DNA of 54,063 nt from positions 89,589 through 143,651 of the forward strand of contig CALXWM010000001.1 in the NCBI GenBank assembly GCA_944392425.1, read 5' to 3'. The position numbers were made by a program, and so were the translations under genes. This stretch comes from an uncultured Clostridia bacterium. GTDB taxonomy: Bacteria > Bacillota > Clostridia > TANB77 > CAG-508. The notes below the pieces were generated by a model. That model was not told the DNA's origin. It saw nothing but the letters and a program-made list of their open reading frames with translations, and made no database searches. The stretch's first letter is position 1; every line of letters begins with the position of its first letter. This document shows, piece by piece, positions 50,943 through 54,063 of this stretch.

Positions 50943-51066
50943 ATACGTAAAAGTGCAGAAAAAGTGAATAACGCAAGAAAAAAAGAAAGTAGAAAAACAC
51001 TTATTATAAAAAAAGTTAAAAAAGAAGTGAAGCGGGATTACTTTAATAGCGTTAGTGGTTACAACC
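50943..51066 (+). pseudogene. 5' remnant of a type IV pilin-like gene (class III signal peptide), interrupted
   Basis: AAGGAGGAG RBS, then a basic leader (I)RKSAEK...KKVKKEVK and, after a +1 shift, GITLIALVVT. The hydrophobic helix breaks off at about 51065. Confidence 0.65.
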
Positions 51067-51245
51067 ATATTCTCTTATGACGAAAATGTAAAGTCTAGTA
51101 ATAACAAAGGTTTCCTCCTACAAACAATTTAGTAAAAATCATAAATTTTCAAATATTTAAAAGATGAATTGTAAAAAATAAAAACAATTTCATCTTTTTT
51201 TGATTTTATAATAAAAATTTAAAATTGAGAGGAGATTTAAAAATT

Positions 51246-51638
51246 ATGGAGAACAAAGAATTAAAAGAAAGATTTATTGATGAAAGAACAGGAATAGAAT
51301 ATGTAAGACAAGGAGATTATTATATTCCAAATTTAGTATTACCAAAACAAAAGAAAATACATTTGAATAAATACGGAAGAATGAGATTAAACTATTTAAA
51401 AGAACATAAAAAAGCAGAATATACAATAATGTTTATGGAAAATACAATAATAGACCATTTAGAAGAAATACAGGAAACAGCAACTAAAAGAGTTAATCAA
51501 ATTATTGATGATTTGAAAGCAAAAAGTAATTTAACAGAAGATATGAAAAATACAGATATGCTTTATTGGGTGGGAACTATGAATGCAATTAGGCAACAAG
51601 CAGAGGAGATTATATTAAATGAATTAATATATGTATGA
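51246..51638 (+). CDS. tnpV: TnpV family protein
   Basis: Y.RQGDYYIPNL, KYGRMRLNYLKEH and WVGTMNAIRQQAEEII..ELIY. Confidence 0.88.
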   Translation: MENKELKERFIDERTGIEYVRQGDYYIPNLVLPKQKKIHLNKYGRMRLNYLKEHKKAEYTIMFMENTIIDHLEEIQETATKRVNQIIDDLKAKSNLTEDMKNTDMLYWVGTMNAIRQQAEEIILNELIYV

Positions 51639-51747
51639 AAATTTATAGATTTAATGGAAAAATTTTGAGTTTTATGATATAGTATGAACTAATAAAAGAG
51701 AAAATGTAATTTGGCAACAGCCGTTGCTAAATTAGAAAGAAGGTAAA

Positions 51748-52812
51748 ATGAACGAATTAGAGAACATAGATAACATAAATATAGATGATTTATATAATAA
51801 AATAGTTGATAAAATTGAAAAAGCAAAAAGAAATGTAGCATTAAAAGTAAATGAAGAAATGACAATATTATATTGGAATATAGGAAAAGATATAACTGAA
51901 AATGTCTTAAATTATGAAAGAGCTGAATATGGAAAGGCTGTAATAAAAAAGTTAAGTCAAAGGTTAACAGTTGAATATGGACGAGGATATAGTAGTGCAA
52001 ATTTATTTAGAATGCTAAAAGTCTATGAATATTATCCAGATTTTCAAAAATTCTCGACACTGTCGAGAAAATTAAGTTGGTCACATTTTGTTGAACTATT
52101 ACAAGTTAAAGATAGTTTAAAAAGAGATTTCTACACAACAATGTGTGAAAATGAGTTTTGGGGAGTTAGAACATTAAGAGAAAGAATTGGCTCAGCATTA
52201 TTTGAAAGAACAGCAATATCTAAAATGCCAGAACAGACTATTGTAAATGATTTGAAATTGCTAAACGAAGAAAACAAGATGACAACTAATTTATTTTTTA
52301 GAGATCCATATATATTAGACTTTTTGGATTTAAAAGACACTTATAGCGAAAAAGATTTAGAAAATGCAATTATAAGTGAATTAGAAAAGTTTATTTTAGA
52401 AATGGGAAATGATTTTGCTTTTCTAGCTAGGCAAAAAAGAATAACAATAGATGGAGAAGATTATTATATAGATTTATTATTCTATCATAGAAAAATGAAA
52501 AGGTTAGTAGTTATAGAATTAAAGCTAGATAAATTTAGACCAGAATATAAAGGTCAGGTTGAATTATATTTGAAATGGTTAGACAAATATGAAAAAGCAG
52601 AAGGAGAAGAATCACCAATTGCAATCATATTATGTGCGACAAAAAGTGATATGATGGCACAATTACTAGAATTAGATAATAGTGGAATACATGTTGCACA
52701 ATATTTGACAGAATATGTACCAAAAGAAATATTAGAACAAAAATTTATGGATAGTATAGAAAAGGCTAAAGTTCAACTAGAACAAAGAAAAAATATTGAA
52801 GATAAAGAGTAA
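51748..52812 (+). CDS. YhcG/DUF1016 family PD-(D/E)XK nuclease
   Basis: YWNIG, YGRGYS..NL..M, LSWSH, RDPY.LDFL, IDLLFYHR..LVVIELK and IAIILC. Confidence 0.92.
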   Translation: MNELENIDNINIDDLYNKIVDKIEKAKRNVALKVNEEMTILYWNIGKDITENVLNYERAEYGKAVIKKLSQRLTVEYGRGYSSANLFRMLKVYEYYPDFQKFSTLSRKLSWSHFVELLQVKDSLKRDFYTTMCENEFWGVRTLRERIGSALFERTAISKMPEQTIVNDLKLLNEENKMTTNLFFRDPYILDFLDLKDTYSEKDLENAIISELEKFILEMGNDFAFLARQKRITIDGEDYYIDLLFYHRKMKRLVVIELKLDKFRPEYKGQVELYLKWLDKYEKAEGEESPIAIILCATKSDMMAQLLELDNSGIHVAQYLTEYVPKEILEQKFMDSIEKAKVQLEQRKNIEDKE

Positions 52813-53000
52813 TCTAAATTTTCTCGACACTGTCGAGAAAATTCAAAATAAAAAATTGCTTTGAATTTAGAAATAAGTTCAAGGCGATTTTTTTTGGAAA
52901 TTTTTTATCTACAATTTTAAGATATAAACTTATATTGCTTATATATCAAAAGCGAAAATAAAGCCAAAATAAAGCGAACGAATTTGAAAGAGAGGAGGGG

Positions 53001-53504
53001 ATGGCAATGTCAAATTTAAATTTAAAAGGATTATGGATTCCAATAGAAATATTAACAGACAAAAATTTAAGTGATAAAGAAAAACATATATATTCACTTG
53101 TAATATTTTTAAGTCAAGAAAAACAATATTGCTTTTGTACCAATAAAACTATAGGCGAACTTTTAAATATATCAGTAACACAAGTATCAAAGCTAGTAAA
53201 TTCATTAAAAGATAAAGGTTATATAAATATTGAAATGGTATATAAAGAAAATAGTAAAGAAGTAGATATTAGAAAACTAATACCTATTGAAGAAAAGTTA
53301 AATACCCTATTTAACAAAAGTTTAATACCCTCCCCAACAAAACTTCAATACCCTATTGAAGAAAAGTTTAAGGATAATAAATATAATATAAATAAATATA
53401 AAAATACTAATAATAAAAGGCTTTGCAATTTTGAACAAAGAGATTACGAAAAAGAAGGCTTTGATTTTAATAGCTTATATGCAAATAATAATTTTACATC
53501 GTAG
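53001..53504 (+). CDS. HTH-domain replication initiator-like protein
   Basis: WIP.EIL.D..LS..EK, CF.TN and L..KGYI winged-HTH pattern with internal direct repeats. The true start may be ATG 53007. Confidence 0.65.
   Translation: MAMSNLNLKGLWIPIEILTDKNLSDKEKHIYSLVIFLSQEKQYCFCTNKTIGELLNISVTQVSKLVNSLKDKGYINIEMVYKENSKEVDIRKLIPIEEKLNTLFNKSLIPSPTKLQYPIEEKFKDNKYNINKYKNTNNKRLCNFEQRDYEKEGFDFNSLYANNNFTS
53279..53369 (+). repeat. Four ~23-bp iteron-like direct repeats
   Basis: AATACC(C)TATTGAAGAAAAGTT-like units at 53279, 53301, 53324 and 53347. Confidence 0.7.
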
Positions 53505-53766
53505 TTATGCTGTAAAACAAAATGAAAGTGTAGGTTTTTTTAAAGTAAAACTTATGCTTTTATTTTGGAATTTTGAAACCGAATAGGTTTCAAAAAGAGT
53601 CAAGAAAAAATATATAATATGTTTTTCTTGGCTCTCTTAACCATAAATTGCGGATAGCAAATTATGGTTAAGCATAAAAATATACTTGTTATATTTTTAT
53701 GGAAAAACTAAAAATGCAGTAAAGCTATTTTTAGTTTTTTGGGGTGCAGGAACTCCTGCCACACTG

Positions 53767-53974: not shown

Positions 53975-54063
53975 ATGAGTTTTGCAATTATTAGAAACAC
54001 AAAATACAAAAGAGAAAATTTAAAAGGAATATACAGACACAACGAAAGAAGAAATAAAAATTA
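53975..54063 (+). CDS. MobV/Pre-family relaxase, N-terminus (runs off window)
   Basis: GGAGG RBS; MSFAIIRNTKYKRENLKGIYRHNERRNKN contains the HNER motif I of Mob_Pre. Confidence 0.8.
   Translation, partial: MSFAIIRNTKYKRENLKGIYRHNERRNKN

Follow-up and report, generated by a model that had tools for sequence, protein, structure and literature searches.

Throughout the YhcG (DUF1016) family, E. coli K-12 yhcG included, the genes have as their hallmark a DNA palindrome set in frame at a fixed codon position, and we describe it here from a gene near the end of a 54,063-nucleotide stretch of contig CALXWM010000001.1 of an uncultured Clostridia bacterium (this whole stretch is referred to as the window). 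YhcG/DUF1016 is a very widespread, uncharacterised nuclease family, which is represented in E. coli K-12 by b3220, counts a PADLOC defence candidate among its members and is often met in mobile elements and at restriction-modification loci. To the family-wide palindrome the window adds an exact satellite copy behind the stop codon and its concerted evolution with the in-frame copy, the placement of palindromes at gene boundaries, cassette boundaries, a ParB-like head and a dimer prediction. We tentatively favour the reading that the palindromes are putative symmetric DNA sites of the YhcG dimer itself, situated in and beside its own gene; binding and its effect we infer from the palindromes, their covariation, the concerted copies, the boundary placement, the ParB-like fold and the dimer prediction.

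An in-frame palindrome across the YhcG family

The gene and its three palindromes are arranged in the window as follows.

51748-52812, + strand: intact YhcG/DUF1016 gene, 354 amino acids (aa); Pfam DUF1016_N at aa 19-154 (profile positions 2-137 of 137, E 7.2e-45), Pfam YhcG_C PD-(D/E)XK at aa 183-328 (E 7.2e-48), PADLOC PDC-S02 (1.3e-122)
52046-52073, core 52051-52069, no strand: in-frame palindrome (site A), encoding the helix at aa 99-106 and the turn before SWSH
52817-52843, no strand: post-stop satellite palindrome AATTTTCTCGACA-C-TGTCGAGAAAATT, perfect 13-bp arms
51707-51734, no strand: upstream palindrome TAATTTGGCAAC-AGCC-GTTGCTAAATTA in the 5' leader, of a type unlike the other two

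The core of the in-frame palindrome, TTCTCGACA-C-TGTCGAGAA (52051-52069), has perfect 9-bp arms and occupies codons F102-K108 of the segment FSTLSRKL (aa 102-109 of the YhcG protein), with the SWSH codons directly 3'. Homologous loci were drawn from contigs sampled at one genome per species, where 595 of 600 candidate stretches were relatives; the best 80 of these 595, together with relatives' loci, yielded 93 alignable sites, 91 of them non-redundant, from Clostridia, Proteobacteria, Bacteroidota, Planctomycetota, Cyanobacteria, Chlamydiota and methanogenic archaea. The typical site has the form AATTGTnnnnnCA-C-TGnnnnnACAATT and stands directly before (S/T)W(S/T)H. Its inner bases vary among genes yet stay complementary, and the encoded peptides follow them (IVSTLSRQL, IVYTLCRQL, IVHTLCAQL, IVVSLIRQL).

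The original prediction, made from the letters of the window alone, had drawn attention to the palindromic codons before SWSH, and the homologues bear it out beyond what synonymous codon choice gives: the median palindrome score across the 91 loci was 10.5 against 4.6 for synonymous-codon shuffles, with p<=0.05 at 82 of 91 loci and a score never reached by 200 shuffles at 64 of 91. Scores of at least 9 were obtained by 69 of 91 in-frame sites, compared with 12 of 2389 other 54-nt segments of the same genes. Taking each open-reading frame (ORF) with 100 nt on either side, 80 of 90 genes hold a palindrome scoring at least 9 (30 of 151 control flanks of ~1.3 kb) and 47 of 90 one scoring at least 12 (6 of 151 control flanks). 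The in-frame site is weak (<8) at 13 loci, 8 of which carry another palindrome scoring at least 10 in or beside the gene; weak-site loci with other palindromes include L007, where they stand on either flank, L012, with two per side, and L026, with one behind the stop codon. The original prediction also took the encoded segment to be highly variable; this holds for the inner residues only, and only as far as the DNA stays symmetric. Conservation extends to the outer residues (I/F ... Q/K-L) and the central T/S-L of the peptide and, in the DNA, to the outer AATT(G) and the central CA-C-TG.

A second DUF1016 gene of the genome (G000:C28:596-1900) contains two frameshifts, as a pseudogene or through assembly error, and keeps a palindrome, ATTTTGAACGC-ATT-GAGTTCAAAAT, before LSWTH. 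We found no account of such a coding-DNA palindrome in the literature on DUF1016/YhcG, the available portions of PMC9881135, PMC11341870, PMC4316617, PMC7967276 and PMC13734603 being silent on it.

Matching copies evolve in concert

The 23-mer at 52051-52073 recurs exactly at 52821-52843, 8 nt past the stop codon, as had been noted originally, and the direct repeat widens to 28 nt at 93% identity (52046-52073 vs 52816-52843). Allowing up to 3 mismatches it is found at these two places only in the window (0 in 100 dinucleotide shuffles), and allowing up to 2 at two places only in the genome of 1,535,296 bases (G+C content 28.8%; reversed control 0), so the genome holds just two copies. None of the genome's other strong palindromes listed (arms of at least 12) repeats the YhcG palindrome sequence. 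The third palindrome, which the original prediction placed before the ribosome-binding site, is present there at 51707-51734 as a single copy of different sequence, with 12-bp arms that contain one G.T mismatch and an end 13 nt before the ATG; in the register named by that prediction it reads NLATAVAKL.

Matching copies are not peculiar to the window. For the 71 loci whose in-frame site scores at least 9, its central 21 nt were searched for in the rest of the locus (±1500 nt), and a second copy within 5 mismatches of 21 was present at 29 of 71, whilst the complemented (non-reversed) control gave 0 of 71, with a best of 6 mismatches. Fourteen of the matched copies are a second in-frame site ~35 codons upstream, which the window gene does not have, 7 lie 5' of the start codon, and 8 lie just past the stop codon, 7 of these in the clade of the window gene and 1 in L081, a Phenylobacterium metagenome-assembled genome (MAG), where 21/21 bases match. 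Such palindromes cluster within 100 nt of the ORF ends, and some satellites are distant (-1473 and -596 from the in-frame site).

Three arm types, CTCGACA, GTCGACA/GCCGACA and TGCGACA, occur in the clade of the window gene (L003, L036, L101, L037, L004, L039 and L040; aa identity from 100 down to 67%), and from type to type the post-stop copy changes along with the in-frame one. Where the in-frame copy is imperfect through coding, the post-stop copy is symmetrised, to the left-arm variant in L037 and L004 and to the right-arm variant in L101. The E. coli K-12 gene, taken by coordinates from NC_000913.3 (L116), exhibits the same layout: yhcG holds three tandem in-frame palindromes (L116 10130-10240), and a matching palindrome stands 16 nt past its stop (L116 10971-10995), between yhcG and the convergent nanQ, with the right-arm variant of the second in-frame copy as its arm; the K-12 record annotates no repeat feature at the yhcG palindromes. 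An E. coli genome search with the Buttiauxella gene gave matches on two plasmids only. The covariation with flanking copies that the original prediction suggested testing for is thus seen through the three arm types of the clade, and K-12 shares the layout. With palindromy general among the homologues, and with flanking copies that turn up repeatedly and change together with the in-frame one, the post-stop copy is no one-off duplication. We also considered and rejected the idea that it is a relic of a former gene, as it lacks SWSH-type codons at its 3' side, has arms that are lengthened symmetrically and changes in step with the in-frame copy. The 85%-identical orthologue at L038 (CANAUI010000043.1, 1501-2457) ends at aa 318, is followed by unrelated DNA with an opposite-strand ORF and has no post-stop palindrome.

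Concerted change of this kind could also come about without function, if the sequence were a self-perpetuating quasi-palindrome kept perfect by intramolecular template switching and tolerated by the protein in a permissive helix, with the satellites arising and homogenising through the same copying errors. Such copying would account for arms that change jointly even at the cost of protein sequence, for intergenic copies that are longer and more perfect than the coding ones and are symmetrised from either arm (L037 vs L101; K-12), and for the missing wobble bias and the restriction of arm-protein covariation to the encoded segments that are described below. It leaves unexplained, however, why the palindrome is retained at one codon from archaea to E. 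coli, why 8 of 13 weak-site genes have another palindrome in or beside them, why the outer AATT(G) and central CA-C-TG are conserved, and why two copies 770 bp apart should remain matched whilst the arms pass through three types. We consider this account unlikely, though with some real chance of being correct.

Transcription signals and the nature of the symmetry

Three predicted expression signals surround the gene.

51655-51683, + strand: promoter-like site TGGAAA-17-TATAGT with TG, 9/12 matches
51735-51743, + strand: ribosome-binding site GAAAGAAGG, directly 3' of the upstream palindrome and 4 nt before the ATG at 51748
52850-52893, + strand: intrinsic terminator, a 20-bp stem followed by a T-run (-20.5 kcal/mol, z -7.2)

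The promoter call is weak because such sites are no more frequent than in shuffles (13 found in the scan vs 14.8 expected); a transcript starting from it would contain the upstream palindrome at about +17 to +44. The post-stop palindrome is followed by CAAAATAAAAAA, without a T-run on the + strand, and the terminator scan flagged nothing but the palindromes, these on the minus strand. With the T-run absent and a real terminator at 52850-52893, the post-stop copy is not itself a terminator. The terminator module is kept in related genomes, where no palindrome precedes it in 3 of 5 distinct contexts (L019, L024, L011), and since it there follows other genes without a palindrome, it is the YhcG gene, rather than the terminator, to which the palindrome belongs. 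The original prediction had named as its refuting case a one-off local duplication whose downstream copy acts only as a terminator, and the stable stem of a copy only 8 nt past the stop would suit it; as the layout recurs with co-varying sequence in independent lineages and the T-run is lacking, this case is for practical purposes ruled out.

The palindromes might instead act at the RNA level, as hairpins of a single transcript (one each in its 5' leader, coding region and 3' untranslated region), or as copies pairing within or between mRNAs to give an RNase target. All three lie inside the predicted transcript, from the promoter-like site to the terminator, each folds well as RNA (-13.7 for the upstream palindrome, z -4.8, then -9.7 and -13.4 kcal/mol, with z between -4.3 and -5.8), and pairing between copies would account for the identity of the in-frame and post-stop sequences. 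The 62 mismatches within 12 nt of the centre comprise 16 G.T, 9 A.C (p 0.23) and 37 that are neither, 15 'GCT-loop' sites, readable as an innermost G.T from ACG/GCG codons, having been left out of the count; an earlier count of 38 G.T vs 9 A.C was discarded, its excess having come from the outermost, codon-fixed position. Moreover, complementarity runs to a 1-nt centre, further than a hairpin could pair. Double-stranded recognition therefore fits better than an RNA stem, with symmetry that reaches the centre and wobble pairs that are not favoured, and the pattern looks like duplex-DNA symmetry or copying. Rfam 15 gave 0 matches at E<=1 over 51000-53600, and the distant satellites mentioned above lie far from the gene. 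Control through RNA is on balance decidedly improbable.

The gene as cargo in a conserved backbone

The YhcG gene lies between TnpV and HTH_36/DnaD_N genes, an arrangement, with a relaxase-like ORF in relatives, that we take to be a small mobilisable element. Against L007, which has the same TnpV/HTH_36 backbone, identity lies at 0.83-1.00 as far as the upstream palindrome, drops to 0.53-0.73 over the gene and is back at 0.87 from 52850 onwards; with L004 and L101, homology sets in at 51730, within the right arm of that palindrome. On this identity profile the gene and its post-stop palindrome behave as one exchangeable unit of cargo, set in a backbone that is conserved. The slot between TnpV and HTH_36 is taken by YhcG alleles which are only 31-35% identical, and the terminator module with the leader of the next gene (52846-52951) is 78-92% conserved in L007, L011, L012, L019 and L024, behind different cargo genes.

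At the position of the upstream palindrome, orthologues carry one that is centred 26-28 nt 5' of the ATG and lies ~20 nt downstream of a TATAAT box, and their arms differ and co-vary (GTACAGA, GTGCAGA, GAGCAGA). The upstream type of the window (TTGGCAAC...GTTGCCAA) occurs on both flanks of the 35%-identical YhcG gene of L007. An allele with this type in frame, of the sort the original prediction had suggested looking for, turned up in L013, a member of another YhcG subfamily, where WQQLVAKL is encoded by TGGCAACA-GCT-TGTTGCCA, the window's upstream type bar one central base. Judged by these sequence relationships, the upstream palindrome appears to belong either to the backbone or to a gene that held the slot earlier.

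Reads were surveyed as Logan contigs of four runs (two RNA libraries and two DNA), in a form that puts rare variants, RNA ends and expression beyond reach. In one DNA run a contig departs from the window sequence at 52844, exactly behind the post-stop palindrome, and in one RNA-library run another palindrome, AATTTTTGCAAC-AGCG-GTTGCAAAAA, stands directly before the terminator module (52848). Three small contig joints were seen (51889>52057, side 22; 52648>52820, side 30; 51266>51911, side 20), whose short sides, at 90% likeness, probably come from homologues of other organisms.

These boundaries invite the explanation that the palindromes, as hairpin or duplex, are recombination or cassette-exchange sites bounding YhcG cargo, similar to attC. 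The breaks in identity and in the contigs fall at palindromes, and a site stands directly behind the stop codon with variable sequence and constant shape. Ordinary homologous exchange in the conserved flanks would, however, give such boundaries too, the near-universal copy is in frame and cannot be a cassette end, and the sites differ from attC in being perfect palindromes of 25-31 bp. No recombinase could be linked to them, although no integrase search was made. The deletion between 52051 and 52821 that the original prediction had suggested looking for, or the corresponding inversion, was not seen in the Logan contigs of the four runs, which as contigs only make a weak test. We therefore hold this explanation to be rather improbable.

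The window stops at the end of its contig (G000:C1:143651; window position 54063), 1.25 kb past the gene, and the right-hand part of the element lies beyond. In the 3' part of the HTH_36/DnaD_N ORF (53001-53504) there are three direct repeats at 53290-53371, with a spacing of 23 nt; they are iteron-like and may mark a replication origin of the mobilisable element. The closest named record is that of an uncultured Clostridia MAG (L036, 99% aa identity), and near-identical DNA is present in chicken-gut metagenome runs of several studies. No close relative of the YhcG gene was confirmed on viral contigs, and a tblastn search of phage records gave 14 distant matches only; with so few and such distant matches, the gene is typically not phage-borne.

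A ParB-like head and a predicted two-fold dimer

The structural model divides the protein into two parts.

51748-52257, + strand: N-terminal head, aa 1-170, with a long dimerising helix at aa 12-54 and a ParB/Noc/KorB-like domain at aa ~40-155 (model)
52294-52731, + strand: PD-(D/E)XK nuclease domain, aa 183-328, with E218, D242, E257 and K259

The full-protein model has a predicted local distance difference test (pLDDT) score of 76, and the head alone (aa 1-170) reaches pLDDT 90.6 with a predicted template modelling score (pTM) of 0.78; the predicted fold is helical to aa 170 and is followed by the PD-(D/E)XK domain. In an alignment of 70 sequences E218, D242 and K259 are invariant and E257 nearly so, and these are the predicted catalytic residues. 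Fold matches of the tail are NucS, AdnAB, BpuSI, Hjc and Cas4 at Z 7-9, whilst the best match of a Protein Data Bank (PDB) sequence search had only E 0.08.

Comparison of the head with 48,161 chains by VIA-align placed four ParB-family chains at the top: the ParB-parS structure 6s6h_B (Z 7.2, root-mean-square deviation (rmsd) 5.8, 110 residues aligned), Spo0J 1vz0_A (Z 7.1, rmsd 2.5, 89 aligned), KorB 1r71_A (Z 5.9) and KorB 8qa8_A (Z 5.8). Only 7 chains reached Z>=5, and SopB and VirB came further down. The top 10 rows of a Foldseek search were likewise all ParB or Noc (E 0.1-0.27, probability 0.96-1.00), among them the site-bound Noc domain 6y93_A with a template modelling score (TM) of 0.71 normalised by target. 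At the sequence level the helix-turn-helix (HTH) profile HTH_ParB (PF17762) gave weak matches at E<=1 to 29 of 65 family N-domains, with a best E of 0.0014 and all under the 22.6-bit cut-off; the window protein is not among the 29, and the next family matches 7 members. These matches put profile positions 31-100 on aa ~81-151, and hhalign arrived at the same register, in which LSWSH pairs with L(T/S)EGH and WSVRTL with SVR(D/E). In this register the predicted recognition helix falls at aa 83-95 with the palindrome-encoded helix (aa 99-106) next after it, and the upstream in-frame site of other genes encodes the first HTH helix. Pfam gives DUF1016_N and YhcG_C only, and the N-terminal ParB/Srx CTPase domain of ParB was not found among its matches; the protein is therefore not a ParB, and only its head is ParB-like.

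The protein is also predicted to form a homodimer, with an ipSAE (interaction prediction score from aligned errors) of 0.74 against 0.00 for the best control. Among proteins of known structure, 20 of 30 that were solved as pairs and 1 of 23 that were solved as single chains attain this value; since our own alignment was used, these counts apply only approximately. Between runs the contacts agreed to at least 69%, with a partner pLDDT of at least 65. The predicted interface consists of antiparallel long helices (aa 11-52) plus aa 65-77 and makes a two-fold dimer. ParB DNA-binding domains bind palindromic parS as two-fold dimers, with the recognition helix and later helices in contact, according to the accessible part of PMC7383237. 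If template switching alone had produced the palindromes, both the ParB-like head and the dimer prediction would be coincidental.

The palindromes as putative sites of the YhcG dimer

Taken together, the ParB-like head and the predicted two-fold dimer lead to a concrete hypothesis, that YhcG binds its own gene. A YhcG dimer would dock through its ParB-like head on the palindromes, as ParB does on parS, and through them would act in cis on the gene that encodes it. The likeliest effect would be promoter-independent negative feedback by a roadblock, or tethering of a potentially toxic nuclease, and such control would travel with the cargo gene to any place of insertion. The post-stop copy would then be a satellite evolving in concert with the in-frame copy, and the upstream palindrome would be the site of another YhcG allele type that has remained in the backbone of the element. 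Among the readings offered by the original prediction, the self-recognition operator gains support from the ParB/Noc/KorB-like head and the predicted symmetric dimer, and the exchangeable mini-cassettes find none, neither deletion nor inversion between 52051 and 52821 having appeared in the Logan contigs. A stronger and more speculative form of the operator reading is that the encoded peptide might itself read the site.

Several observations weigh against binding by the dimer and keep our preference for it tentative. The fold scores are modest, the Z of ~7 and the Foldseek values alike being within what the tools rate as usual for helical proteins, and hhalign of the head against the ParB HTH alignment gave a probability of 3% (E 0.015, 40 columns). 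Alleles differ without restriction in the inner 4-6 nt of each arm. Several palindrome sequences can surround one gene (four in L012, two types in the window), so that one protein could hardly read every type base by base. The sites, at 25-31 bp, are longer than the 16-bp parS. Only the encoded segments stand out in the covariation between arms and protein (aa 101-112, partial r 0.20; aa 61-82, 0.10), and the predicted recognition helix (here aa 81-92) shows none (partial r -0.10), in a weak test on 52 sequences with no tree correction. Finally, intergenic copies look 'perfected' from either arm (L037 vs L101; E. coli), an outcome that a purely mutational process would give too.

RhuM genes bear a similar feature, a co-varying in-frame palindrome of the form TTCAACTnnnnnnA-A-TnnnnnnAGTTCAA or CAGTT...AACTG ~10 codons after the HTH (G000:C51:1831-1861 and loci L117-L146); among the RhuM relatives 25 of 30 distinct sites score at least 9, and 24 of 30 have p<=0.05 vs synonymous shuffles.

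A bolder generalisation, which we put forward as speculation that is probably wrong, is that YhcG genes, and RhuM genes too on the strength of their palindromes, form self-contained modules: the DNA encoding a ParB-like domain would hold that domain's own site, with allele-private palindromes and with palindrome-encoded helices, beside the recognition helix, that change together with them. Site and protein would then be inseparable by recombination, and mobile defence genes would possess an allele-specific, promoter-independent self-control, as well as forming natural orthogonal protein-DNA pairs. Binding of the YhcG dimer to its own gene, if true, would by itself be a first functional handle on the family and would explain how cargo genes in foreign operons bring their own control. 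If template switching alone is responsible, the palindromes would record a striking mutational process that has shaped a protein family over very long times.

Comparison with known systems

In the Ripley model, quasi-palindromes are hotspots of template switching, at which imperfect palindromes become perfect and a change in either arm is transferred to its partner. The covariation of the YhcG arms and the 'perfected' intergenic copies resemble such hotspots, which occur in arbitrary genes, whereas the YhcG site is kept at one codon across domains of life and has satellites at gene boundaries. Repetitive extragenic palindromic (REP) sequences and their associated tyrosine transposases (RAYTs) offer another likeness, in that short palindromes are associated with a gene and flank it, and the nuclease-type product of this gene presumably acts on them. 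However, REPs exist as tens to hundreds of dispersed extragenic copies, whilst the YhcG palindrome occurs twice in 1.5 Mb with its main copy in frame, and a RAYT is an HUH Y1 transposase, whilst YhcG combines PD-(D/E)XK with a ParB-like head. Integron attC sites are 57 bp or more, contain unpaired bases and have a neighbouring IntI integrase. They share with the YhcG palindromes a position directly behind the cassette ORF, a variable sequence of constant shape and exchange boundaries at the sites, but the YhcG sites are perfect palindromes of 25-31 bp whose defining copy is inside the ORF.

In B. subtilis a parS site lies inside the spo0J gene itself, which is an arrangement comparable to the in-frame copy described here. 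Of the ParB-parS, Noc-NBS and KorB-OB systems, the helical HTH domain is the best structural match to the modelled YhcG head, at modest scores and with a weak sequence signal. Binding of palindromes as two-fold dimers is described for the ParB family in the part of PMC7383237 available, and is putative in YhcG, where the dimer is predicted. YhcG differs from ParB in having a PD-(D/E)XK nuclease in place of the CTPase domain, and its palindromes differ from ParB sites in that they span 25-31 bp, have inner arms which vary freely, and occupy one fixed codon position throughout the family, where the protein sequence yields to them.

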